64,000 bases of DNA from positions 5,990 to 69,989 of the forward strand of contig JBDTRK010000003.1 of assembly GCA_039931685.1 (NCBI GenBank), given 5' to 3'. This DNA comes from Betaproteobacteria bacterium (GTDB lineage: Bacteria; Pseudomonadota; Gammaproteobacteria; Burkholderiales; JACQAP01). Within the stretch, counting starts at the first letter, position 1. Every line of letters begins with the position of its first letter. The notes beneath the pieces are model-generated. The model was not told the DNA's origin. It saw only the letters and a program-made list of their open reading frames with translations, and searched no databases. Both the position numbers and the translations under genes were made by a program. Of this stretch, positions 8,681 through 46,713 are shown one piece after another.

Positions 8681-8720
8681 CCTCCGGTTTCAGCAAGCTT
8701 CGCCGGAATACGTATCATGG

Positions 8721-8753
8721 CCGGCATCCCGATGGGGTGCCGGTTTTTATTTT
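8721..8753 (+). terminator. rho-independent terminator
   Basis: Hairpin ccggcatccc-gat-ggggtgccgg followed by tttttatttt. Confidence 0.6.
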
Positions 8754-8778: not shown

Positions 8779-8974
8779 TTCACCGCAAAGGACGCCAAGG
8801 ACGCGAAGGAAAAAACAAGGGCGAGAAAAGAAGAGCCGCGATGAAACGCAGCCTAACTGTTCATGGACCTGTATCGCCAACTTTCATTGCGATGGATTAT
8901 CGGTCAATGTAACGGCACCAATACGAGAATATTTTTTCGTCTTGGTCTTCCTTGGCGTCCCTGGCGGTGAGCGC
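8779..8974. repeat. MITE-like palindromic element, copy A (inverted orientation)
   Basis: Arms ttcaccgcaaaggacgccaaggacgcgaagg and ccttggcgtccctggcggtgagcg enclose about 120 nt. The internal core at 8874-8915 is the reverse complement of the core in copies B and C. Confidence 0.7.
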
Positions 8975-15954: not shown

Positions 15955-15977
15955 CGAGGCGATCTCCTTAAAACAAT

Positions 15978-16178
15978 GCTCACCGCAGAGGACGCGGAGG
16001 ACGCGGAGGAAAGAAAAGGGCGATAAAGCATTGTCGTGTAAGAAGCGTTCATTGGCCTATGACCCGTTGTAGCGAAGTTGGCGGCACTATCCGTGATCAG
16101 CCACACCACCCATATCCCCAGTCTGCCCTTCCTCGTTCTTGCTCTTCCTCCGCGTTCTCCGCGTCCTCTGCGGTGAGC
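15978..16178. repeat. MITE-like palindromic element, copy B
   Basis: Arms gctcaccgcagaggacgcggaggacgcggaggaa and ttcctccgcgttctccgcgtcctctgcggtgagc match at 33 of the first 34 positions. A-tract on the left, T-tract on the right. Core at 16046-16086. Confidence 0.8.
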
Positions 16179-16200
16179 GTTTTTTTGCATTAGGACGCAG

Positions 16201-17187: not shown

Positions 17188-17366
17188 GTCTCCCCCTGGA
17201 AAAGCTTGTCGTTCTGCGCGCCGATTGCTGCAATGCGATGCGAGCGCATTGTCATTTAGGGTGCCGGAAGATTGTACGAAGTTTTGGGCAAGGTGGAAAA
17301 TATCGCCAGCAACTCGACCTATCAAGCACTGCACGGTCATCGATAAAGGGCAAATGGGAGGCACGC

Positions 17367-19217
17367 ATGGCTGGAACGATCCGATTGACAGTGGCGCAGG
17401 CACTGGTGCGATATCTTGCAGCATTGCGCAGCGACCTCGAAGGCGGGCTGCCGTTGTTCGGTGGCGTTTTCGCGATCTTCGGCCACGGGAACGTGGCCGG
17501 CATCGGCGAGGCGCTTTACCAGCATCGCGACCAACTGCCAACTTTTCGCGCGCACAACGAGCAGGCCATGGCCCTGGCCGCGATTGCGTATGCGAAAGCG
17601 AACCTGCGCCGGCGCATGATGGCTTGCACGACTTCGATCGGACCGGGCGCGACCAACATGGTCACGGCGGCGGCCGTGGCGCACGTGAACCGGTTGCCGG
17701 TGCTGCTACTGCCTGGCGACATCTTCGTTTCGCGTGCGCCCGATCCAGTATTGCAGCAGGTAGAGGATTTCCACGATGGGGGCGTATCGGCCAATGATTG
17801 CTTGCGACCGGTATCGCGCTATTTCGACCGTATCGTCCATCCGGAGCAATTGCTGACCGCGTTGCCGCGCGCGATCCATGTGCTCACCGATGCGGCTTTG
17901 TGCGGCCCGGTGACGCTCGCCATGCCGCAGGACATGCAAACGACGGCGTACGACTGGCCGGAGGATTTCTTCTCGCCCCCGATCATCACGGCGCGGGCAC
18001 TCCCGCCTGCCCGCGCACAATTGCGTGAAGCAGCCGCGGTATTGAAAAACGCGAGGCGTCCACTCATCATCGCCGGCGGCGGTGTGCTCTACGGCGAGGC
18101 GACAGAAGTCCTGCGCCACTTTGCAGAGAGCCATGGCGTACCGGTGGCCGAGACCCAGGCCGGCAAGGGATCGTTGCCATGGGACCACAGGCTGCAGCTC
18201 GGCTCGATCGGCGTTACCGGCTCGACGGCGGCCAACGCGATGGCGGCAGAAACCGACATGGTGATTGCGGTCGGCACGCGGCTGCAGGATTTCACGACCG
18301 GATCCCATTCACTGTTCAAGCAGGCAAAGCTGATGAACGTCAATGTCAACGGGCTGGATACGATCAAACTGCGCGGGCTGGCATTGCAAACTGACGCGCG
18401 CTCCGGATTGCAGGCGCTCGATACCCTGCTGCCGGGCTGGAAGGCGGACGACGCGTGGACCACAAAAGCCACGGAGCTTGCCGCCGAATGGCGTACGCGA
18501 GTCGATGCGATCACTAACCGACGCGATGTCAGGCCGCCATACGAAGGCGAGGTCATTGGCGCCGTGCAGCGCTCGGCGGCGAATTCGACGACGAACGACA
18601 TCGTGGTCTGTGCCGCGGGCGGCCTGCCGGGCGAACTGCACAAACTCTGGCGAACCGCGGTCCCCGGCGGTTATCACCTGGAATACGGCTATTCGTGCAT
18701 GGGTTACGAAATCGCCGGCGGACTTGGCGTAAAAATGGCGCGCCCGGAGCGCGAGGTTGTCGTCATCGTCGGCGATGGCAGCTACCTGATGATGAACTCC
18801 GAGATCGCCACTTCGGTGATGCTCGGTCTGAAGCTGGTAATCGTGCTGCTGGACAACCGCGGCTATGGCTGCATCCACCGGCTGCAACAAGCCTGCGGCG
18901 GCGCGCCGTTCAACAATTTGTTCGATGACGGCGTGCGGGCGCCGGGCGGAGCGCCGCACGTCGATTTTGTCGCGCACGCGCAAGCCCTGGGCGCCATCGC
19001 GGAAAAGACCGATGATATTGCCGGACTGGAGGCTGCGCTCGCTCGCGCTCGCAAAGCCACTCGCACGTCGGTAATCTGCATCGAAACCGACCCGAATCGC
19101 TCGACCGGAGACGGCGGCTGGTGGTGGGAAGTCGCGGTGCCGGAAGTATCGCAGCGCAAGGAAGTGGCCGCCGCGCGCACGATTTACGACCAAGGCAAGA
19201 AAAAACAGAAAGCGTGA
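17367..19217 (+). CDS. iolD: 3D-(3,5/4)-trihydroxycyclohexane-1,2-dione acylhydrolase (ThDP enzyme)
   Basis: MAGTIRLTVAQALVRYLAA..., a ThDP-binding GDGSYLMMNSE motif, about 616 aa, adjacent to iolE and iolG. Confidence 0.9.
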   Translation: MAGTIRLTVAQALVRYLAALRSDLEGGLPLFGGVFAIFGHGNVAGIGEALYQHRDQLPTFRAHNEQAMALAAIAYAKANLRRRMMACTTSIGPGATNMVTAAAVAHVNRLPVLLLPGDIFVSRAPDPVLQQVEDFHDGGVSANDCLRPVSRYFDRIVHPEQLLTALPRAIHVLTDAALCGPVTLAMPQDMQTTAYDWPEDFFSPPIITARALPPARAQLREAAAVLKNARRPLIIAGGGVLYGEATEVLRHFAESHGVPVAETQAGKGSLPWDHRLQLGSIGVTGSTAANAMAAETDMVIAVGTRLQDFTTGSHSLFKQAKLMNVNVNGLDTIKLRGLALQTDARSGLQALDTLLPGWKADDAWTTKATELAAEWRTRVDAITNRRDVRPPYEGEVIGAVQRSAANSTTNDIVVCAAGGLPGELHKLWRTAVPGGYHLEYGYSCMGYEIAGGLGVKMARPEREVVVIVGDGSYLMMNSEIATSVMLGLKLVIVLLDNRGYGCIHRLQQACGGAPFNNLFDDGVRAPGGAPHVDFVAHAQALGAIAEKTDDIAGLEAALARARKATRTSVICIETDPNRSTGDGGWWWEVAVPEVSQRKEVAAARTIYDQGKKKQKA

Positions 19218-19219
19218 AT

Positions 19220-20119
19220 ATGAAATCCTTTGACGTGAAAATCGGCATCAACCCGATTTCCTGGGCCAACGACGACCTGCCTGAACTCGGTGGCGACACG
19301 CCGCTGCAGACAATCCTGTCCGAAGGCAGTGAAATCGGCTACCGGGGTTTTGAACTCGGCAACAAATTTCCGAAGGAGCCGGAAGCCTTGCGCAAGGTGC
19401 TCGCGCAATACCGCGTGGAGCTGGTGTCCGGTTGGTATTCCGGCGAACTGGCGCGGCGCTCCGTTGAGGAAGAGATCGCGGCGGTCGGCCCGCATCTGCA
19501 ATTGCTATCGAAGAACGGCGCCAAGGTCATGGTTTACGGCGAAGTCGCCGATTCGATCCAGGGCAAACGAGATGTGCCTTTGTCGCGTCGCCCGCAGTTC
19601 GCCGGTGACACGCAATGGCACGCCTACGCAGCGAAGCTCGACGCGCTCGCCCGCTACACGCTGTCGCAGGGCATCGCGCTCGCCTACCATCATCATATGG
19701 GCGCCTATGTCGAAACCGTCACCGACATTGATCGGCTTATGTCGCTTACCAGCCCGGACGTCGGCCTGCTTCTGGACAGCGGCCACATCACTTTCGCCGG
19801 CGGCGATCCGGTCGACGTGCTGAAACGGCACATCGCGCGCGTGTGCCACGTGCACTGCAAGGACGTGCGTGCCGCGGTCGCCGCGCAGGCCCACAAACAG
19901 GACTGGAGCTTCCTCGATTCCGTGCTGAAGGGCGTCTTCACGGTGCCCGGCGACGGTCACGTCGATTTCCGGTCACTGCTGACGCTGCTGCGCGACCATG
20001 GCTATGGCGGCTGGCTGGTGGTGGAAGCCGAGCAGGACCCGGCGCTCGCGCCGAGCTACCAATACGCGCGGATGGGTTTCCGCTATCTGTCGGAATTAAA
20101 ACACGCGCTGGAGCGCTGA
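19220..20119 (+). CDS. iolE: myo-inosose-2 dehydratase
   Basis: VKIGINPISWANDDLPELGG and the TIM-barrel xylose-isomerase-like pattern. It starts 3 nt after the iolD stop. Confidence 0.9.
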   Translation: MKSFDVKIGINPISWANDDLPELGGDTPLQTILSEGSEIGYRGFELGNKFPKEPEALRKVLAQYRVELVSGWYSGELARRSVEEEIAAVGPHLQLLSKNGAKVMVYGEVADSIQGKRDVPLSRRPQFAGDTQWHAYAAKLDALARYTLSQGIALAYHHHMGAYVETVTDIDRLMSLTSPDVGLLLDSGHITFAGGDPVDVLKRHIARVCHVHCKDVRAAVAAQAHKQDWSFLDSVLKGVFTVPGDGHVDFRSLLTLLRDHGYGGWLVVEAEQDPALAPSYQYARMGFRYLSELKHALER

Positions 20120-20139: not shown

Positions 20140-20350
20140 AAATGTTCACCACAGAGGCACAGAGGACACCGAGGAAAGGCAAAGAGCTAGAAAAATTCTC
20201 GCTTAAAAGACGTTCGTCGGCCAATGATCCGTAGCAGTGAAATCTGGCGGCAATGCGCCATGCGCAACTACACCGTTCTCGTTTCTCATTCTTCTTTGCC
20301 TAAATTTTTACTTTTCCTGCGCGTCCTCTGTGTCTCTGTGGTGAACATTC
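20140..20350. repeat. MITE-like palindromic element, copy C
   Basis: Arms aatgttcaccacagaggcacagaggacaccgagg and cctgcgcgtcctctgtgtctctgtggtgaacatt. Core at 20211-20252, similar to copy B. Confidence 0.8.
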
Positions 20351-20353
20351 TTT

Positions 20354-20381
20354 AAAAAAAAGCCACCGCGATTGCGGTGGC
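20354..20381 (-). terminator. rho-independent terminator of the ABC operon
   Basis: On the minus strand, hairpin gccaccgcaatcgcggtggc is followed by tttttttt. Confidence 0.6.
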
Positions 20382-20401
20382 CGTCAGTGTGAGGTAATCG
20401 A

Positions 20402-21409
20402 CTACTTGGCGATGCAGGTCGCCGCTGTTTCCGGCTCGCACACATCCAGGCCGGTATAGATCGGATCGCCGACCTTCTTCTTTTCCTTGAGGTCCTTGAG
20501 GATGAACATGGCCTTGTAACCCATGTCGAACGGTCGCTGGCCGACTTGGCCATGGCTGTAGCCGGCTTTCATCAAATCCATCTGCACCGGCAAGGTATCG
20601 GCCACCACGAGCAGGGTCTTCTTGCTCTTGATGCGCTCCATGTTTTTTTCCACAACTTGCCGGTAGGCCTGCGGCACGAACTGCGGAAATCCGCCGGTCG
20701 GCAGGAAGGCCGTGAGGTCGGGGTACTTGGCGAGTATTTCGCCAAGCTGCCTCACCGACAACGGAAAATCGTCGTTGGTGTACAACGGGCAACCGTCGAC
20801 TTCCGTCCAGCCGCCCTGGCCGGTCAGGCGGTCTCCGGGCGGCGGTGTGCTGCTGACTTTTCCGGCAATCGTGTCGCGAATGCCCTTCATGCGCTCGTTA
20901 TGGTTTGCTGCTGCCGGACCACCCGACTGGATGCACACCGTTCCGCCCTTGGGCTTGAGCTTCATGGCGATTTTCGCGAGGTTCACGCCGATGTCGTAAT
21001 TCTTGGTGCCGACATACGCAGCGCGCAGGCCTTTGTCCTTGTCAAGCAGGTCGGAATCCCAGGTGATCACCGGAATGCCGGCCTTCTTGGCCCGCTCCAG
21101 CGCTTTCGCCATCGCCGGGGCATTGGACGGCGCCACCGCAATACCGTCGACCTTCTTGGTGATCAGATCCTGCACGACTTGGACCTGTTCTTCACCGCCG
21201 CCATGCTCGCCGGGGCCGATGTACATGCACTCGACCTTGCCGGCCAGTTCCTTCTGCGCCTTCATGCAGCCGTCTCGCGCCTGGTCGAAGAACGGGTTGT
21301 TCATGTTTTTAGGAACCAGCGCGAACACCAGCTTGCCGCCCGCCGCGCTGACCACGCCTGGCAGGCCGAACAAGGCCGCCATTGCCGCCACCATCAACGT
21401 CTTTTTCAT
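20402..21409 (-). CDS. sugar ABC transporter substrate-binding protein
   Basis: Signal peptide MKKTLMVAAMAALFGLPGVVSA and a ribose-type periplasmic-binding-protein pattern (VPKNMNNPFFDQ..., VDGIAVAP). Confidence 0.85.
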   Translation of the reverse strand: MKKTLMVAAMAALFGLPGVVSAAGGKLVFALVPKNMNNPFFDQARDGCMKAQKELAGKVECMYIGPGEHGGGEEQVQVVQDLITKKVDGIAVAPSNAPAMAKALERAKKAGIPVITWDSDLLDKDKGLRAAYVGTKNYDIGVNLAKIAMKLKPKGGTVCIQSGGPAAANHNERMKGIRDTIAGKVSSTPPPGDRLTGQGGWTEVDGCPLYTNDDFPLSVRQLGEILAKYPDLTAFLPTGGFPQFVPQAYRQVVEKNMERIKSKKTLLVVADTLPVQMDLMKAGYSHGQVGQRPFDMGYKAMFILKDLKEKKKVGDPIYTGLDVCEPETAATCIAK

Positions 21410-21443
21410 CACGTTCCTCCTCATGTCGTTATAGGCCCGGTTT

Positions 21444-22454
21444 TCAACCCGAGCGCATTCCACGGAACTTGCTCAATAACACTGCAAACACAATGAACAG
21501 ACCTACGAACGTACCTTCCCAGTTTGCGTCCACACCGGCCAGAAGCAAACTGTTCCGGATTACTTCAATCAGGGCCGCGCCGACAAAGGCGCCATAGGCA
21601 CTGCCGGCACCGCCCATCAGATCTGCACCGCCGATGACCGACGACGCGATCACGCGCAATTCGTAACCGGTTCCCATGGCATTGATCGCCGCGCCCTGCC
21701 AGCCCACCAGCAGGACCGCAGATACGCCCGCCATCAACGCGGAGAGCAGGTACACGGAGAGCTTCATGCGGTTCACGGGCACCCCGGTCAGGCGCGCAGC
21801 CTGCTCGTTGCCGCCGAGCGCGAACACCCAGCGTCCCCAGGTGGTGTAGCGGAACACGACCATGAACAACACCGTCAGCACGATCAGCAGGATGAACGGA
21901 TTGGCGATGCCGAATACCGTGCCACCGCCCAGCGCAAACAGCAGTTTTTCGTCCGGACCGAATTCGTAGATCATGTGGTTCTCGGACAACACCTGCGCCA
22001 GACTGCGCGCGATCCCGAACATGCCCAGCGTGACGATGAACGGCGACAGGCGTACATAAGCGATCAGGATGCCGTTGACCAGCCCGCACAGCAGCGCCGC
22101 CAGCAAGCCGGCGCCGACCCCGGCCCAGATGGAATGCCCCGCATTGAGTACGAGTCCGGTGACGACGCCGGAGAGGCCGACGATCGAGCCGACCGACAAA
22201 TCAATGCCGCCAGTGATGATGACCGCGGTCATGCCCATGGCGATGATGCCGATGAAAGCAAAGTTGCGCGTGACGTTGAAGAAGTTGTCCTCGGTGAAGA
22301 ACACGTTCGACACCTGCGACATCACCACGCAAATCAGCGCGAGCGCGACGGTCACCCAGAAGGGCTGGCTGCGGATCATCGCCCGCAGCGGGTTGTTCTC
22401 CCTTCTTTGCGCGATCTCTTCGTGGGTTTCGCTCATCGGGCTATTCATCCTCAT
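21444..22454 (-). CDS. sugar ABC transporter permease
   Basis: 336 aa with about 10 TM helices, RbsC/AraH-like (GGIDLSVGSI motif). Confidence 0.85.
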   Translation of the reverse strand: MRMNSPMSETHEEIAQRRENNPLRAMIRSQPFWVTVALALICVVMSQVSNVFFTEDNFFNVTRNFAFIGIIAMGMTAVIITGGIDLSVGSIVGLSGVVTGLVLNAGHSIWAGVGAGLLAALLCGLVNGILIAYVRLSPFIVTLGMFGIARSLAQVLSENHMIYEFGPDEKLLFALGGGTVFGIANPFILLIVLTVLFMVVFRYTTWGRWVFALGGNEQAARLTGVPVNRMKLSVYLLSALMAGVSAVLLVGWQGAAINAMGTGYELRVIASSVIGGADLMGGAGSAYGAFVGAALIEVIRNSLLLAGVDANWEGTFVGLFIVFAVLLSKFRGMRSG

Positions 22455-26568: not shown

Positions 26569-26669
26569 CCGGCGAGGGCCGTGACGCGTGACAAGTGACG
26601 AGTGACGGGTGCAAGGCGAGACAGGATAAACATTCTTTCCTTATTGCACGCCCTGCGCCTCGCTTTGGA

Positions 26670-27437
26670 CTACGCCCACCCGGCATCGACGACGAAATTC
26701 TGCGACGTAATCATCTTCGCGTCGTCAGACGACAGGAACAGGACCATATTGGCCAAATCTTCGGGTTGCAGCCGGCCCTTCAGGCATTGCTGCTGGTCCA
26801 TTTGTTTTTCCCCTTCCGCGGTCAGCCAGAGTTTCTTCTGGCGTTCGGTCATGACCCAGCCTGGGGAAACCGTGTTGGCGCGGATGTTGAATGGACCAAG
26901 GTCACGCGCGAGCCCGCGCGTGAGGCCATGGATAGCGGCCTTGCTGGTGGTATAGGCAGGCATGCCGCCGGTCGCGGTCATCCAGGAAATCGACCCGAAA
27001 TTGATGATCGAACCGCCGCCCAGGCTCCTCATCTGTTCGACGACGGCCTGCGCGGCGAAAAACTGGTGGCGCAGGTTGACCGCGACGCGCTCGTCCCAGT
27101 ACTCGACGGTTACGCTTTCGATCGGATGGCGATCGTCACGGGCCGCATTGTTGACCAGGACGCCAATATCTCCGAATGCCGACTGCACCGACTTGATCGC
27201 GGCGCGCAAGTTGTCGATATCGCGCACATCGCAGTGCACGAAGCGCGGTGCCGAATTCGCGCGCTCGAGCTTGTTCAACAGCGCATTGCTGGCCACCTCG
27301 TCAATGTCGACAAAGCCCACGCGTGCGCCCTGGCGCACAAAAGCCTCGACAATCGCAGCGCCGATTCCGGAGCCGCCACCGCTGACGAATACGACCTTGT
27401 CCTTGAGACTGGGATAGTTGGCGAAGCGATCTGGCAT
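26670..27437 (-). CDS. SDR-family oxidoreductase (2-keto-3-deoxy-L-fuconate dehydrogenase-like)
   Basis: VFVSGGGSGIGAA, NNAA, and YTTSKAA catalytic YxxxK. Confidence 0.85.
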   Translation of the reverse strand: MPDRFANYPSLKDKVVFVSGGGSGIGAAIVEAFVRQGARVGFVDIDEVASNALLNKLERANSAPRFVHCDVRDIDNLRAAIKSVQSAFGDIGVLVNNAARDDRHPIESVTVEYWDERVAVNLRHQFFAAQAVVEQMRSLGGGSIINFGSISWMTATGGMPAYTTSKAAIHGLTRGLARDLGPFNIRANTVSPGWVMTERQKKLWLTAEGEKQMDQQQCLKGRLQPEDLANMVLFLSSDDAKMITSQNFVVDAGWA

Positions 27438-27516
27438 GGCTGTTTCCTGGCAATTGAAAATGCTGACCATCGCCAGTATAGCCAATCGACCGCGATGGTT
27501 CGTCAACCTGCCAGAT

Positions 27517-27996
27517 TCACTGCACCAAGATCAACCAGGCAATGATGTTGCCCTTTTCCCGCATTGTGCACTGGCGTCCAATCACCATCTCGCATTTCGG
27601 TTTGAGGAATTCCTCGACATGATCGAAGTTGGTCAGGCGCTTCGGATTGGCCGAAGGCGCCAGCGGCCCGATCTTGCGCAGCTTGGCGCGTTTCGGATGC
27701 GGATTCTCGGAATCATTGATGACATGGCACTGGCGGCACAGCACCCTGGATTTGTGCGCGAAAATTTCTTCGCGCGGGTCGGCGAGGTGACAGGAAACGC
27801 AGTTGATGGCGCCAACGACCGGCAGTGCGCGCTTCTACAGGTACAGTTCATGGCAGTGCCCGGCGGAGAAACCGGTAAAGGTCGGGTTTTCCTGTTTCGC
27901 CAGTTCGGCGTAACGATCGAGAATCTGGTCCGGCGTGTCGGTTAGCAAAGGCGCCGGGCATAAGGATAGCGCGCGGGCTGCCGCGATCCGCTTCAT
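27517..27996 (-). pseudogene. DUF1924-like c-type cytochrome interrupted by an in-frame TAG
   Basis: MKRIAAARALSL... signal-like N-terminus, then ...FSAGHCHELYL, then TAG (27835-27837). The same frame continues KRALPVVGAINCVSCH...CRQCH...IGPLAPSANPKRLT...GRQCTMREKGNIIAWL. There are two CxxCH motifs (27787-27801 and 27724-27738). Confidence 0.55.
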
Positions 27997-28090
27997 TGCC
28001 CCTCCTCCGAGAGAGTACCCAATCCTTCTCGTCCAGCGATTATGCTGCCGGACCGGGACAGTGGCTAGTTCCAGGAGCACACGCCCGTCT

Positions 28091-28573
28091 TCAGTTCCGA
28101 AACCTGCGCCGCATGTCTGGATTCATTTTCTCCCAGACGATGGCGTCCAGCGAGAGCTTGCCCGGACCGTGACAAAGCACGACCAGAATCAGGGTGCCCC
28201 AGAAAACATGCTGCGCCAGCGCCGGTTCGGCCATGTTCAGAACATGCCAGTACGACACCACGGCCATGACGTTGACGAAAGTCAGGCCAAATGCCGCGAA
28301 GCGCGTCGCCAGACCCAGTGTCAGCAATACTGGCAGAACGAGTTCGCCGAGGGTGCCCATGACTGCCGCGAGCTCCGGCGGAATCACCGGCACGCGATAC
28401 TCTTCCTGGAACAGTGTCAGCGTTGTGTCCCAATCGCGGATCTTGGTCAATCCGGACAGGAAAAACACTTTCGAGACATAAAGCCGGATGCCAAGATCGA
28501 GAACGTTTCCCAGCAAGTCGAGGCTTTTGCGGCTGGTGTCGAGTAGTGGCACGAGTCTTTCGATGAGGGACAC
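28091..28573 (-). CDS. DoxX-family membrane protein
   Basis: GIRLYVSKVFFLSGLTKI ... ELVLPVLLTLGLATRFAAFGL is DoxX-like. A GTG start lies 1 nt after the upstream stop, with GGAGGA upstream. Confidence 0.8.
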   Translation of the reverse strand: MSLIERLVPLLDTSRKSLDLLGNVLDLGIRLYVSKVFFLSGLTKIRDWDTTLTLFQEEYRVPVIPPELAAVMGTLGELVLPVLLTLGLATRFAAFGLTFVNVMAVVSYWHVLNMAEPALAQHVFWGTLILVVLCHGPGKLSLDAIVWEKMNPDMRRRFRN

Positions 28574-28574
28574 G

Positions 28575-29357
28575 TCATCCTCCGTTGAGTTTGAAATTGA
28601 CAATGACCGAGGATGCGACCCACTCGTTCAAAGCGCGGCCGAGGTCGAACGAGGCATCGCAAGCCTGCGCTGCCACCAATGCCGCTTCCAGCGTGCGGCC
28701 CTCGCGCACAGCGGCCAGGAATGCCGCGTCGGCGTCACTGGCCTGCGCGACCTCAACCCGGAAGTGTGGCCGATAGACCAGCGCGTGCGAAGCGCCCGCG
28801 GAAAAATCCACGTCGAATTCACCCTCGGCCGCGTCCTGGTGCACCTGCCAGATGCGTGCAAGCGGATATTCGGAATGCAGGATGCGGCACGCCGGATGCA
28901 ATTGCGGACGCAACTGAAGTTGCGCCTCGGGCGTCAGCCCTGCCAGGCTCGCCGCGTCAAAGGAGGCGGGATCCGCCGCGTAATGGGCGCGATGCACTTG
29001 CCATTCCAGGCGCGCGATATCGGCGAGATAGGGCAGTTGCGCCGCTGGCTGAAAATCGGCGATGAACGCGGCGAAGGATTCGCCATACTCGTTGAGGTCG
29101 CCGTCTTGTGACGGGAAGCGCAAGCGATACTGTCGCGCCAGGCCGGAGAAGAATTCCACCCCCACGATTTTTGCGATGACCGGGTAAGCGGCTTCAATGG
29201 CCCTGGCGGCATTGGCCAGCGTATTGCCGCGGTAAATGCGCAATCGCCTGCCTGCCTGCTGCGAACCGCCAACGAACATCCCGAGCGCTTCGGACCCGGC
29301 ATCATTTGCATCCAGTGCGACGCCGAAGCGCGCCTGGAGTGTCTCGAGCTCACGCAT
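28575..29357 (-). CDS. DUF2063-family protein (MNIO partner, BufC-like)
   Basis: LQARFGVAL...RLRIYRGN...AYPVI...VGVEFF...LARQY...[10 protein letters not shown] is the DUF2063 pattern. The start overlaps the DUF692 stop (ATGCGTGA). Confidence 0.8.
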
Positions 29358-30195
29358 ATTCGGCCTGCAAGACACGCGCCGCCAGGGCCGCTTCTTCGAG
29401 CAACACGTCAAGCGCCGGAATCGATGTGTCCCATTCGATCAGCGTCGGCACCGGACCAAAGCGCCGACACGCCGCCTCATAGAGGCTCCACACCGGCGCC
29501 GCGACACGGGAACCGTGATCGTCGATCAGCACATCACCATCGGCGCTATGCCCGGCAAGATGGATCTCGGCGACCGCCTGCACGGGTATTTCGAGTAACG
29601 CCTCGACCGGATCGAACCCGTGATTCACGGCATTGACGTACAGATTGTTGACGTCGAGCAGGATGCCGCAACCGCTGCGCCTGGCGAGCTCGGCAAGAAA
29701 AGCGAATTCGGACAACTCCGAGGCGCGGAATTGCAGGTAGCTCGACACGTTCTCGATGAGCACGCGCCTGCGCAGCGTCTCCTGCACCTGCGTGACATGC
29801 GAGACGACCTGGTCCAACGCCTCACGGGTAAACGGCAAGGGCAGCAGATCGTTGAAATGGCGCGGCCCGATCGCGGCCCAGCACAAGTGCTCGGATACCA
29901 GCGCCGGCTCAATACGCTCGACCAGGCGTTTGAGTTTCGCAAGATGCCGCTGGCGCACCCCATCGGCGGAACCTAGCGACAACGCCACCCCATGCAGGCT
30001 GACTGGATAACGGGAACGAACTTGCTCCAGCACATGGAGGTCGTATCCGCCGGCACCGAAATAATTTTCGCTGTGGACTTCCAGCCAGCCGGCCCTCGGC
30101 TGAGAATCGAGGAGCTCGCGGTAGTGAGGAGCCCGCAGCCCGATGCCGACACCTCGCACGGCGACTTGACCTTCGGAAGAGCTAAGCAGACTCAT
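29350..30195 (-). CDS. DUF692-family multinuclear non-haem iron oxidase (MNIO; MbnB/BufB-like)
   Basis: GIGLRAPHY...WLEVHSENY...[12 protein letters not shown]...SEHLCW...IENVSSY...DVNNLYVN...EIHLAGH...LIDDHG...LIEWD is the canonical DUF692 motif series. Confidence 0.9.
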
Positions 30196-30261
30196 GCCGG
30201 AATAACACCGACGCGAGCGGTACAAACTGCCCGCGCCGATGAAGGGAGGAGACTTGGTGAA

Positions 30262-31407: not shown

Positions 31408-31616
31408 ATTGAACCACGGAGGACACGGATACCCTCGCGATAGCGTGGAGTACCCTTTTAGGACACGGAGAATCAAAAGGATTGTCCGGACGGTTGGCGC
31501 GGACAGGGAGATTCACAAAACTGAGACTCTCTCATTCCCGTGGACATTGCCGGTTAGTGATCTTCGTATCGAACGTCTTGCCTCCGTGTCCACCGTGTCC
31601 TCCGTGGTTCACCTAA
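31408..31616. repeat. MITE-like palindromic element, copy D (inverted, left arm interrupted)
   Basis: Arms attgaaccacggaggacacgg and ccgtgtccaccgtgtcctccgtggttcacctaat. It fills the otnK-otnC spacer. Confidence 0.7.
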
Positions 31617-43329: not shown

Positions 43330-44694
43330 TCAATTCAGCCCCAGCCGCTCCATTCGGTAGCGCATCGACCGAAACGTGATGCCGAGCAACTTCGCCGCTG
43401 CGGTGCGGTTGTAACGGGTTTTCTCGAGCGCCTCCAGGATCGCCTCTTTCTCGATGCGATCGAGATAGTCCTGCAGAGGCGCCTTGCTGTCTGCGCCGAC
43501 GGCCACCGTCTGGCCGGGCAAGTCCTCGGGCGTCAACTGCAGATCTTCCGCCGTGACCTTGCCGTCGCTGCACAATGCCATCGCCCGTTCCAGGACATTC
43601 TCCAGTTCGCGCACGTTTCCCGGAAAATCATAGCGCTTGAGTTCCTCGAGTGCCTCGGGCGCGACCTCGGGTTTTCGCGTCCCGGCGTTGCGCGCCAGTT
43701 TGTCGAGCAAGGCGACGACGAACTGGGGAATATCCTCGCGCATCTCGCGCAGCGCCGGCATGCGCAGTTCAATCACGTTCAGCCGGTAGTACAGGTCGTG
43801 GCGAAACTTGCCGGCCTCGACACACTCGCCGAGTTTCTGGTGAGTGGCGCTGATGATTCGCACATCGACCGGGTCTTCCTGGGTCGCACCAACCTTGCGC
43901 ACCTTTTTTTCCTGAATTGCACGCAGCAGCTTGACCTGCATCGGCAAGGGCAAGTCCGCCACCTCGTCGAGGAAGAGCGTGCCGCCGTGGGCCGCCTGAA
44001 AAAAACCGTCCCGATCGCTGTCCGCGCCAGTAAATGCGCCCTTGCGATAACCGAAGAACTCGGACTCCATCAGATTTTCCGGGATGGCCCCGCAATTGAC
44101 CGGAACAAAGGGCTGGGTACGGCGCGCGCCCTTCTGGTGAATGAGCCGGGCCGCCAGCTCCTTGCCGCTACCGGACTCGCCGGTTACGTGCACGGGCGCC
44201 TCGCTGCGCGCGAGCTTTTCGATGAGTTCGCGCACCTGCTGGATGACCGCGGAATCTCCCAGCATCGACTGCTCGCCCGCGACCTTTGCGGCGGCAACCT
44301 GCGGCAGCGACAGGGCGGACTTGACCAGCGTACGCAGTTGCTCAAGCGAAACCGGCTTGGCCAGATAGTCAAATGCACCGGCTTTCAACGCGGCCACGGC
44401 ATTTTCGGTATTGCCGTGCGCGGTAATCACCGCAACCGGCAGATCCGACAGATTGGACGAGATGTACTGCACCAATTCGAGACCTTCACCGTCGGGCAGG
44501 CGCATATCGGTCAGGCACAGGTCGTAGTCGCCAGACTTGACCTTCTCGATCGCACCCTTGACAGTCGTCGCGCGATCGACATCCAGTCCCATGCGCAGCA
44601 GGGTGAGTTCGATGAGTTCGAGGATATCCTCCTCGTCGTCGACGACAAGCACCGAACGCGTTGTCGATCCTGCCGCCTGATCTTTGCGTTTCAC
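43330..44694 (-). CDS. pilR: sigma-54-dependent response regulator
   Basis: REC domain (VLVVDDEEDI...DLCLTDMRLPDG), AAA+ GAFTGA/ESELFGH-type region and a Fis HTH. Close to P. aeruginosa PilR throughout. GTGA overlap with the kinase stop (alternative ATG at 44712). Confidence 0.8.
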   Translation of the reverse strand: MKRKDQAAGSTTRSVLVVDDEEDILELIELTLLRMGLDVDRATTVKGAIEKVKSGDYDLCLTDMRLPDGEGLELVQYISSNLSDLPVAVITAHGNTENAVAALKAGAFDYLAKPVSLEQLRTLVKSALSLPQVAAAKVAGEQSMLGDSAVIQQVRELIEKLARSEAPVHVTGESGSGKELAARLIHQKGARRTQPFVPVNCGAIPENLMESEFFGYRKGAFTGADSDRDGFFQAAHGGTLFLDEVADLPLPMQVKLLRAIQEKKVRKVGATQEDPVDVRIISATHQKLGECVEAGKFRHDLYYRLNVIELRMPALREMREDIPQFVVALLDKLARNAGTRKPEVAPEALEELKRYDFPGNVRELENVLERAMALCSDGKVTAEDLQLTPEDLPGQTVAVGADSKAPLQDYLDRIEKEAILEALEKTRYNRTAAAKLLGITFRSMRYRMERLGLN

Positions 44695-46313
44695 GCTGAC
44701 ACTCCTTTGCATACCAGACTGAACTGTGCGCCGAGTGGCCGTTCGACATAATCGAGCGTCGCCGCATTCGCCTCGCAGATCTCGCGCGCGATGTAAAGGC
44801 CAAGTCCGGTGCCGCTCGACGCGGTGGTAAAAAACGGCTCGAACAGATGCGCCCGCAGCGACTCGGCCACGCCCATGCCGTCGTCGACGACCATCAATTC
44901 TACCGTACCCTGCCGCGGCCCTGCTCGCACACCAACGACGATGCTGCCGGGCTTCTTCTGGCAATAACGCAGCGCATTGCGGCACAGGTTCCACATGACC
45001 TGGTTGAGGTGGCTGCGGTCGAAGGAAATGGTCGCATCGATATCTTCCTGCACGTGGATGGTGTCGGTTTCTATCTTTTCGATTTCACAGAATTCCGCAG
45101 CAAAGACCTCCAGATATTCGCCCAAGTCGAAATTCTCTCGCACCGCGCGATCGCGGCGGTTCAGCTTGAGTACATCCTGGACCATGCGGTCCAGCCGCTG
45201 TGTATTGTCGTGGATGATCTGCAGCATGCGCGCGTGTGTCGGGCTGCGCAACGCGGAATCCTCGAGCAACAGCTCGGTTGCGTGATTGATTGCCGATAAG
45301 GGATTGCGGATCTCGTGGGCAATGTTGGCGGTCAGCCGGCCCAAAGATGCGAGCTTGAGTTGCTGCGCCTGTTGCTGCACCCGCGTAAGGTCCTCCAGAA
45401 AAATAACCACGCCGACATTGCGACTGGCGCCGGCCTGAACGAATCGCGCCGCAGTGGGTTTGTGGGTCTGCACGGTGCGCAATGGATCGTACCCGGAACC
45501 GCCGGGATCCCGCCGCCACTGGCCAAGTCGCGCCGCAAGTGTGGGCGCGTAGTCCTGCAGGAAGATTTCGCGATGTGCGCGGCTCAAGGGGCCAAGAATG
45601 GCTTCGGCACGGCTGTTGATCTGGCGAATGGCGCCGCGCGCGTCCACCACGACAACGCCATCCTGCATATCCTGGATTACCAGTTGATTGACCTGCGCCA
45701 AATTGGCGAGATCGATTTCCCGCTGGGCGACGATCGCCTCGATTGCAACCGCACGCTTGGCCAGCGAGTGCGCCAGCCAGCCGGTGGCAAAGAAGCCGAT
45801 GCTGAGCAATCCGGCCTGTGCGTATTGCGCGGTGGATCCACTCAGGAAAACGACCTGGCAGGTCTGCTCGGCCAGAACGGCAATGGTCGCCAATGCCGCG
45901 AAAAACAACGTCAACCTGCCCCGGCTGATCAGGCCCACGGCGGCCAGGGATACCAGCAGGAGCAGGCCCAGACCGCTGCCGATGCCGCCGCTGGCGAACA
46001 TCAGAACGGTCAGGAAGACGATGTCCGCGCAGATCTGCACGGAAAGCTGGAGCGTGAAGTAAGGGCGGCGCGGCAGGATGGCGGCGAATGCCAGCAAGCT
46101 GAACAGGATGTAGCCGGTGTCGGCGTAGACGTAAAGGCGGTGACTGTAAGAACCGAACGGGATGTCCTCGCCCAACGTCAGGACCGTCGCCATCAGCACC
46201 AGCGCGGCGGCGAGACGATAGACGTTGAAATAGAGCAGCGAGCGCCAGAAGGCGTCTCCGAACTGCCGACGCTCTGGGGAGAAGGGTTGGTCTGGGAAGG
46301 GAAAGCTGTTCAT
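44691..46313 (-). CDS. pilS: sensor histidine kinase
   Basis: Six N-terminal TM helices, PAS-like linker, H-box IAHEIRNPL, and N/G boxes. It lies upstream of pilR. Confidence 0.75.
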   Translation of the reverse strand: MNSFPFPDQPFSPERRQFGDAFWRSLLYFNVYRLAAALVLMATVLTLGEDIPFGSYSHRLYVYADTGYILFSLLAFAAILPRRPYFTLQLSVQICADIVFLTVLMFASGGIGSGLGLLLLVSLAAVGLISRGRLTLFFAALATIAVLAEQTCQVVFLSGSTAQYAQAGLLSIGFFATGWLAHSLAKRAVAIEAIVAQREIDLANLAQVNQLVIQDMQDGVVVVDARGAIRQINSRAEAILGPLSRAHREIFLQDYAPTLAARLGQWRRDPGGSGYDPLRTVQTHKPTAARFVQAGASRNVGVVIFLEDLTRVQQQAQQLKLASLGRLTANIAHEIRNPLSAINHATELLLEDSALRSPTHARMLQIIHDNTQRLDRMVQDVLKLNRRDRAVRENFDLGEYLEVFAAEFCEIEKIETDTIHVQEDIDATISFDRSHLNQVMWNLCRNALRYCQKKPGSIVVGVRAGPRQGTVELMVVDDGMGVAESLRAHLFEPFFTTASSGTGLGLYIAREICEANAATLDYVERPLGAQFSLVCKGVSA

Positions 46314-46334: not shown

Positions 46335-46595
46335 CTATCGGCTTGCGCGTTCGCGGTCAGCCAGCTGCAGATGCTCCTTGCTGCAAAAAAAATCCCCGCG
46401 CGAGGTGACGGCCTCGCTGGTGGGCAAATGCACGCCGCAGACGCTGCATCGGACCATGTCCTCGCCATGCTTCGACGGGGAGCCGCGCGTCGATGTCGAA
46501 TCGGAAGGCGGCGCTTGGCTCGACTTCCTGGCGGCATTGCGCAGAAAAAGGTAAAAAACGATGACTACGGCGATGACGAGGAGGAATTTTGCCAT
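46335..46595 (-). CDS. PP0621-family small protein (TM + Cys motif)
   Basis: MAKFLLVIAVVIVFYLFL... then MVRCSVCGVHLP...FFCSKEH. It lies upstream of pilS. Confidence 0.65.
   Translation of the reverse strand: MAKFLLVIAVVIVFYLFLRNAARKSSQAPPSDSTSTRGSPSKHGEDMVRCSVCGVHLPTSEAVTSRGDFFCSKEHLQLADRERASR

Positions 46596-46636: not shown

Positions 46637-46713
<77 letters not shown>

Follow-up and report, generated by a model that had tools for sequence, protein, structure and literature searches.

The DNA stretch analysed here, called the window throughout, comprises 64,000 nucleotides of a Betaproteobacteria bacterium (assembly GCA_039931685.1, contig JBDTRK010000003.1, positions 5,990 to 69,989), and it carries four palindromic elements, A to D, that an earlier sequence-only reading had described as one family of small mobile elements with inverted arms of tandem 9-mers. 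As that reading had it, each of the four occupies an intergenic spacer in a catabolic gene cluster; the neighbouring cluster genes include TauE, a class II aldolase, a gene for a sugar-binding protein, and genes resembling IolG/MocA, IolD and IolE. Element A (8780..8970, minus strand) is located 18 nt upstream of the start of a TauE-family gene (8989); B (15980..16176, plus strand), the focal copy, is flanked by two minus-strand MocA/IolG-like genes (stop 16201, start 15954); C (20146..20344, plus strand) sits between convergent genes (19121-20119, plus, and 20402-21463, minus); and D (31411..31611) separates two minus-strand genes, the aldolase (start 31382) and an SBD_N/NBD_C gene (stop 31624). 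Canonical intrinsic terminators were called at 8719-8745 (plus), ~35 nt before A, and at 20361-20382 (minus), ~17 nt after C. A scan of 50 open reading frames (ORFs) of the window against Pfam identified no transposase or integrase domain, which agrees with the absence of a transposase reported earlier.

An inverted-repeat scan that covered the whole 64-kb window and ranked 21 pairs returned A, B, C and D as its strongest inverted repeats (pairs I3, I1, I2 and I6, respectively), each a small non-coding element of 190-200 bp bounded by terminal inverted repeats (TIRs) of 35-59 nt, so that the four elements were recovered where they had been placed. The tandem 9-mers were equally apparent to Tandem Repeats Finder, which called period-9 arrays in A (8784-8810, CGCAAAGGA x3), in the left arm of B (15984-16010, CGCGGAGGA x3) and, as its complement, in the right arm (16146-16172, TCCTCCGCG x3), in C (20150-20175, CACAGAGGA x3) and in D (31584-31606, CCGTGTCCA x2.6). 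In B, where the pair extends over 59 nt at 81% complementarity, the arms (15980-16028 and 16128-16176) enclose an interior of ~100-120 nt in what we term the forward orientation, with the interior motif GTTGGCGGCA on the plus strand. A match of the B arms at 33 of 34 positions had been noted, and we found a near match of this kind, with a single mismatch (G/A) within the first ~32 nt. C is likewise forward and has the arm unit CACAGAGG(A)C, A is inverted and has a degraded right arm, and D has arms of the same type (GAACCACGGAGGACACGG...) around an interior unrelated to that of A-C. The predicted fold of B is very stable on both strands (-108.8 kcal/mol on the plus strand and -105.4 on the minus strand; z = -9.4 and -7.5, respectively), and none of 200 shuffled sequences was equally stable. 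The head of the elements, previously given as (G/T)(C/T)CACC(G/A)C, is in fact (C/T)TCACC in A-C and TGAACC in D. An A-tract before and a T-tract after every copy had also been claimed; these tracts are clear at B and D, and in a consensus of 48 elements described below, but weak at A and C. At B the left A-tract and variable linker (15970..15979, AAAACAATGC) extend the palindrome, their partner being GCGTTTTTTT at 16177-16186, and they are missing from every empty orthologous site. Public assemblies from other samples span all B junctions and, intact in two of them, the entire C element; as these assemblies are independent, A-D are not assembly artefacts.

Direct alignment of A, B and C was weak in the middle, but with A reverse-complemented the alignment runs through the ~120-nt interior. 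A hidden Markov model of this long form (nhmmer) scored B at 182 bits in forward versus 73 bits in reverse orientation, C at 171 bits, and A at 151 bits on the minus strand versus 36 on the plus strand, and at least 16 oriented full-length copies of the long form were collected. For the D interior there was no homologue in any of the fetched loci (denoted below by L numbers). A, B and C are thus one family, to which D is related only at superfamily level, and the earlier grouping of all four stands for A-C, on the basis of their interiors and with A inverted, and for D only as regards arm type. We observed the full-length long form only in metagenome-assembled genomes (MAGs) labelled Burkholderiales, Alcaligenaceae or Betaproteobacteria and in metagenome contigs orthologous to the window, and thus in no bacteria other than Burkholderiales-type ones from soil and sediment. 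Because C-type arms also enclose an 18-nt loop elsewhere in the same metagenomes, we take the hairpin to be the minimal element and the interior to be an occupant of its loop. The minimal unit is an A-tract, a short variable linker, (C/T)TCACC, (RCRRAGGAC)n, a loop, the mirror image, GGTGA(A/G), a linker and a T-tract, and A-C are a ~200-nt 'long form' of it with a ~120-nt interior within the loop. The interior gave no coding signal, its entropy showing no 3-nt periodicity by eye and 1-nt indels being present; a small ORF within it (MIRRSESWR...) was ruled out on these grounds together with a missing ATG or stops in many copies. A by-eye check of the interior as a sigma-54 promoter or an integration host factor (IHF) site found unsuitable spacing, and the head bears a partial resemblance, with wrong spacing, to parS, SlmA, dif and DnaA-box motifs.

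The ends of the elements could be compared in 48 paired copies, the consensus of which has an A-run at -9..-6, three variable bases, (T/C)T and CACC, and, mirrored at the right end, GGTG-A-(A/G), variable bases and a T-run at +6..+11. The variable flanking bases tend to be complementary to each other and do not form direct repeats. In the window family and its relatives the homology between copies ends at or within ~10 nt of TCACC/GGTGA, and no conserved outer sequence was seen there.

D carries in addition an optional module of 31 nt (31430..31460, TACCCTCGCGATAGCGTGGAGTACCCTTTTA) that is inserted within one 9-mer unit of the left arm only, and a 92% identical module occupies the same arm position in L222. 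Analogous modules, small stems with 4-nt loops (GATA, TTCG, CGAG), were observed in L208, L256 and L241. These modules (window 31430-31460; L222 c.125-162; L208 c.1180-1210; L256 c.800-830 and a mirror copy; L241 c.915-945) are 28-31 nt long, lie between the 'ACGR' and 'AGG' of an arm 9-mer and show compensatory changes in their stems, after which follows AAGTGTTyC(A)CCTT, including a second TTTCACC head. D has the module in a single arm and L256 has it in both; it may represent either a mini-element nested in the arm or some protein or RNA motif.

Relatives of the elements are numerous well beyond the window, and the earlier reading's own ground for refutation, that nothing related exists outside these copies, is decisively contradicted. 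The arm pattern CACCRCNRAGGACRCNRAGGA matched 84 IMG/VR stretches, and a stricter 22-nt pattern, TCACCRCRRAGGACRCRRAGGA, for which ~4 chance matches would be expected in 1.2e12 bases (a uniform-composition estimate), matched at least 119 stretches in a set of species-representative genomes. Among the matches listed, the arm motif TCACC(RCRRAGGAC)n is widespread across bacterial phyla, the carriers including Acidobacteriota (with contigs >1 Mb), Beta-, Alpha-, Gamma- and Zetaproteobacteria, Planctomycetota, Verrucomicrobiota, Gemmatimonadota, Chloroflexota, Nitrospirota, Bdellovibrionota, Clostridia and Thermotogae, as well as one archaeal MAG, which is possibly mis-binned, and two complete Bacteroides isolate genomes (AP027244 and NZ_CP192724). 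Cultured carriers are Bacteroides finegoldii JCM 13345, B. hominis and Gemmatirosa kalamazoonensis KBS708, the last with a ~80-nt copy on a plasmid. Most copies are near-perfect hairpins of 50-110 nt, with further size modes at ~140 and ~195 nt, and in the same set of matches ~60% of heads have an inverted partner and ~40% have no close partner. In the source metagenomes the arms are high-copy, as the depth of arm words is far above that of the flanks (278 versus 6.8 in X1 and 164 versus 6 in X3). Many metagenome contigs sharing an arm split exactly at the TCACC boundary, and those sharing the arm of B diverge exactly at 15978-15980, with A-rich flanks; in the source metagenome runs contigs break within the arms, and no contig skipping an element was found there. 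Searches of E. coli genomes and GenBank phages gave no match, of which the BLAST low-complexity filter may conceal some, and the arm strings were absent from the full-text literature searched, including the supplements on the Geobacter 'multicopy sequence'.

Some carriers have several copies close together. In B. hominis (L143; NZ_CP192724, 3728001-3736000) a cluster of six tRNA genes is surrounded by three hairpin elements in the space of 8 kb, and one of these elements is AT-richer, with the arm unit CACAGATTG instead of CACAGAGGA. A set of related IMG/VR 'viral' contigs (L001, L011, L019, L029, L031, L034, L040, L055, L067, L074, L076 and L078) have many large ORFs in common and several hairpin elements each, with five in 14 kb of L019, and in such contigs as L019, L011 and L040 a distinct GC-rich hairpin (GCGCGC..GCGCGC) comes after each of the elements. 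In the Sulfuricellaceae MAG JBAYVP01, near-identical hairpins of ~60-80 nt (L088, L093, L156, L170, L189 and L197) are found inside a larger repeat whose outer ends are inverted CAGGGTAAATTTGTTCTC(R)GC(R)CGGAAAAAAC; this suggests a composite MITE (a miniature transposable element with inverted repeats) with different termini, in which the hairpin may be only a passenger inside another element.

The arms and the interior of the long form have evolved in different ways. In the 16-copy alignment the identity between copies is 55% in the interior and 78-83% in the arms, and standard pairs occupy 96.7% of arm cells, compared with 45-60% in slid registers. Switches from G-C to A-T on both sides were observed at 9 of 23 pairs, and cells with a double change numbered 40 versus 14.7 +/- 3.8 in shuffles (0/500 reached this value), a control that takes no account of shared ancestry. 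The arms therefore co-vary, the palindrome being maintained while the interior diverges quickly. This coupling could stem from a few lineage splits, yet it is consistent at every variable unit position, and within any one copy the tandem units and both arms carry a single variant (GCG-, ACG-, GCAAAG- or CACAGAGG-type).

Evidence of insertion was obtained from the catabolic cluster around B. A search with the MocA protein adjoining B, for which an exact look-up had no record, returned 78 orthologous loci, and the comparison of filled and empty sites that the sequence-only reading had called for yielded two polymorphic sites, which together with the copy depth show the elements to be dispersed and to vary in presence among relatives. 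The first site, the spacer between two IolG-like genes, is 246 nt long in the window and is filled there and in L204/L205, L241/L253, L267, L256 and L222. It is empty in L208/L210 (23 nt, 92% amino-acid identity) and L206 (41 nt, 94%), and also in all distant orthologues (64-71%), where the spacer is 7-34 nt or the genes overlap. As all distant orthologues are empty, the empty state is ancestral and the element a derived insertion with patchy occupancy. The element in L222 is a composite one, and L256 (2170-2479) has ~1.5 copies, as a complete element is succeeded there by another piece of interior and another right arm; this arrangement reads as a partial tandem duplication. L204 and L241b lie at this site in opposite orientations, and their interiors are mutually closest (70% identity versus 45-60% to others), a pattern that fits an in-place inversion through recombination between the arms. 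The second site (17302..17348) was identified from breaks in blastn synteny and by reading the sequence. It is empty in the window, where it is a 45-nt divergent spacer between IolG-like and IolD-like genes, and also in L204, L206 and L212; L241, L208 and L256 have here a hairpin element of 200-260 nt of the same superfamily. At both sites the insertion consists of the palindrome alone, and no terminator-like precursor was seen at the empty sites. Insertions are mostly between co-directional genes and leave the downstream ribosome-binding site intact.

We favour the view, with a probability of roughly 0.6, that these elements are mobile DNA of a palindromic, foldback-like and non-autonomous kind, and that an enzyme encoded elsewhere moves them in trans. 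The earlier interpretation is broadly right: its proposal of a non-autonomous mobile element is supported by the high copy number, the filled and empty sites and the lack of a transposase in the window. This support does not reach to strict MITE status, as neither a target-site duplication nor, in the window and the fetched loci, an autonomous partner with the same ends was found. Because no target duplication was seen, the hairpin extends over the whole length, the strands are equivalent and single unpaired arms occur, we prefer a route of the REPIN/HUH-Y1 kind, with an intermediate that is single-stranded, a hairpin or a cruciform, over DDE cut-and-paste. The complementarity of the arms would be renewed by hairpin-templated copying or conversion, for which the same intermediate could account, and flipping would occur through recombination between the arms. 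Any effects on the host would be by-products, for instance if an element in an operon transcript caused termination, offered a site to RNase III or stopped an exonuclease.

Several points weigh against this view. The cognate enzyme was found neither in the window nor in the 8-kb blocks around the matches; in these blocks no RAYT (REP-associated tyrosine transposase) or other Y1 gene lies beside any copy, head pairs 0.3-8 kb apart enclose no ORF and represent only neighbouring separate elements, and the recurrent neighbours in 203 loci belong only to common housekeeping families (short-chain dehydrogenase/reductase, histidine kinase, acyl-CoA dehydrogenase and ATP-binding cassette proteins). 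No transposition event was directly observed, and no target-site duplication was found in the flanks of the 48 elements, those of filled and empty sites being too diverged for exactness. The filled and empty lineages share only ~80% DNA identity, too little to place the exact ends or to tell precise loss from independent gain. Copies within one genome are old (L176a and L176b are 68% identical in the interior), so recent activity of the long form is not supported. The strand calls used below for gene context and for the sense/antisense comparison come from a crude codon-position GC heuristic. Finally, ordinary MITE biology does not account for an arm sequence conserved across phyla, and the hairpin of JBAYVP01 lies inside a larger repeat with an outer inverted repeat, CAGGGTAAATTTGTTCTC, of its own.

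Selection on RNA structure, with spread as a secondary matter, would agree with the very stable folds on either strand, the compensatory changes in the arms, the A-tract/T-tract consensus flanking the stem, the 4-nt-loop stems of the optional arm module and the canonical terminators that adjoin A and C, and the elements would then be bidirectional terminators, mRNA 3'-end stabilisers or RNase III sites. The sequence-only reading had allowed for a structured-RNA or terminator module of this kind, for which there is now little support. When the Rfam comparison proposed there was run (Rfam 15), tRNAs alone passed the gathering score in the window and 12 further loci, and even at E <= 10 the elements drew only generic miRNA long-hairpin models far under threshold (37 bits versus 137). 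By heuristic strand calls, 46 elements between co-directional genes divided into 20 with a more stable sense strand and 26 with a more stable antisense strand, and G-U pairs were equally frequent (sense 191, antisense 185; Wilcoxon p = 0.45), such that the strand-specific conservation and fixed orientation of a functional RNA were not seen. The interior of the long form occurs in both orientations relative to transcription and is flipped at one orthologous site. Of the 56 elements for which flanks were called, 51 have co-directional or convergent neighbours (44 tandem and 7 convergent, the other 5 being divergent; 79%, 12% and 9%), but a split of this kind is close to that expected of bacterial intergenic regions in general. 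A search for RNA-seq runs listed none. Moreover, B, D and many others appear to lie within operons, and strong termination there would come at a cost, and the terminator scan called none inside the elements themselves, the T-run consensus following 6-11 nt after GGTG. Given the lack of an Rfam match, the lack of strand asymmetry and the mixed orientation, the results argue for a palindrome at the level of DNA and against a strand-specific RNA function. We thus consider a primary role in RNA unlikely; the elements may still serve as terminators or processing sites as a by-product.

It is also rather improbable, in our judgement somewhat more so than an RNA role, that the hairpin is not mobile itself and is carried in, or was captured by, unrelated MITEs or insertion sequence ends. 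The embedded hairpins of JBAYVP01, bounded by CAGGGTAAATTTGTTCTC, are what this would predict, as is the mosaic make-up of elements with optional arm modules, variable interiors, 1.5-copy and composite forms, but in the window family and its relatives the homology stops at the hairpin ends and the polymorphic insertions contain nothing else. An origin in place, through slippage of 9-mers and template-switch (quasi-palindrome) conversion at existing terminators without transfer between sites, would account for the homogenised units and arms of each copy, the palindromy that often reaches into the variable flanks and the partial tandem duplication in L256; it would leave the recurrence of one 22-nt head-and-unit sequence in several phyla and at unrelated sites by the hundred, the ~120-nt interior common to A, B, C and 13 copies at other loci, and the absence of a terminator-like precursor at empty sites without a cause, and we regard it as very improbable. 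There is next to no likelihood that the similarity is a chance matter of low-complexity G-rich sequence or an assembly artefact. The arms are indeed simple purine-rich repeats at which metagenome assemblies break, but the z-scores of -9.4 and -7.5, the interior homology, the independently spanned junctions and the elements in complete isolate genomes all speak against it.

Short intergenic palindromes such as repetitive extragenic palindromic (REP) sequences, REPINs and MITEs are usually lineage-specific, whereas the hairpin described here keeps a head of 20-odd nt and its arm unit across Bacteroides, Acidobacteriota, Planctomycetota, Gemmatimonadota and Pseudomonadota among the matches listed. 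This constancy, alongside a decaying interior, points to very widespread machinery for mobilisation or to a host factor, shared among carriers, that recognises the sequence. A bolder proposal, which we advance tentatively and hold to be doubtful, is that TTCACC-(RCRRAGGAC)n hairpins are a single undescribed, self-maintaining palindromic superfamily across most phyla, with the conserved head and its helical-turn-spaced purine units as recognition sites of a widespread mobilising or binding protein and with arms self-regenerated at each copying; that protein could be a new HUH-type or structure-specific enzyme. In practical terms the elements break metagenome assemblies and yield spurious ORFs of the TEDTEDTE / PPCPPC type, and hairpins of -50 to -110 kcal/mol inside operons are relevant to annotation and to models of operon expression. 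The cultured carriers make experimental testing possible.

The window has several further features. A minus-strand gene at 29350-30225 encodes a protein of the MbnB/TglH/ChrH family (E = 2e-109), an enzyme for modification of precursors of ribosomally synthesized and post-translationally modified peptides (RiPPs); it adjoins several ORFs (26595-29111) without a Pfam match, with which it may form a small RiPP-type cluster. At the start of the first of these ORFs (26595-27545, no Pfam family) is a 7-nt tandem repeat, GTGACGA x4.4 (26581-26611). A tRNA gene at 46640-46713 (minus strand, 63 bits; anticodon loop by eye CGG, Pro) is flanked by an 86-codon ORF (46335-46595), beyond which lies a PilS-like kinase gene (44691-46313), and by an ispB-like gene. 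The gene order ispB / rplU-rpmA-obg-proB is in keeping with a betaproteobacterium, and the L27 protein encoded in the window has an identical counterpart in the NCBI MAG assembly GCA_046593555.1.

Among known systems, REPINs and REP-BIMEs (bacterial interspersed mosaic elements), which are mobilised by RAYT (HUH-Y1) transposases (Bertels & Rainey 2011, PMC3116915; Nunvar 2010, PMC2817692; Di Nocera 2013, PMC3733652), are similar to the present elements in many ways. Both are multicopy palindromes of intergenic DNA, short and non-coding, which fold into a single long hairpin and show no target duplication; they occur as singlets and in clusters, and their neighbours are mostly co-directional or convergent genes. 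In REPINs the enzyme, if there is one, is single-copy and elsewhere in the genome, and likewise none is linked here; the pairing of two inverted units into a long hairpin, with singlets besides, also has its counterpart in the 50-200-nt hairpins and ~40% unpaired heads. However, a REP is defined as a short imperfect palindrome with a terminal GTAG (or CGTC) tag (PMC3733652). REPINs consist of two such inverted, self-palindromic REPs with the tag unpaired, whereas our arms are direct 9-mers without self-complementarity and the head is TTCACC; this arm type is also found across phyla, unlike the lineage-specific REPIN families. The inverted repeats of TIRYTs (GGGGWSAS), like GTAG/CGTC REPs, differ from these arms.

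Classical bacterial MITEs, such as Correia/CREE, ERIC/IRU, RUP and Nezha (reviewed in PMC3184786; census in PMC11602168), are like our elements in size (50-300 bp), in having TIRs and no ORF, in being intergenic, multicopy and polymorphic in presence, and in that they can lie in operon transcripts. They differ in that we found no target-site duplication and no related insertion sequence with the same ends, and in that the inverted repeat here spans most of the short form and not the tips alone, with arms that are internally repetitive and co-evolving. A large survey of MITEs found no cross-phylum bacterial cluster at 95% identity, and its clusters were almost all genus-specific (PMC11602168). 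The sites were also considered as integron attC sites, and this was ruled out by their TTCACC/GGTGAA ends and ordinary catabolic-operon neighbours; attC ends are an inverse core RYYYAAC and a core GTTRRRY at cassette boundaries. With bidirectional intrinsic terminators the elements share an A-tract, a G+C-rich stem and a T-tract on both strands, and they often lie beside canonical terminators, but stems of 30-45 bp and loops of up to 120 nt are far beyond usual terminator dimensions, and the sequence is conserved across unrelated sites and phyla. The closest architectural analogue is the Foldback (FB) element of Drosophila and other eukaryotes, which has long inverted arms of tandem sub-repeats, an arm length set by the number of units and a variable, optional centre that is unrelated from one member to another, and which shares the strong hairpin potential; Foldback elements are eukaryotic, kilobase-scale and flanked by target duplications, and the analogy implies no evolutionary link. 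What is new here in relation to these systems is the coupled evolution of the arms, the apparent in-place flip and a setting with no linked enzyme visible, all seen in a long-form branch, local in its range, of a hairpin-repeat superfamily that is very widespread and whose head and 9-nt arm unit are conserved.

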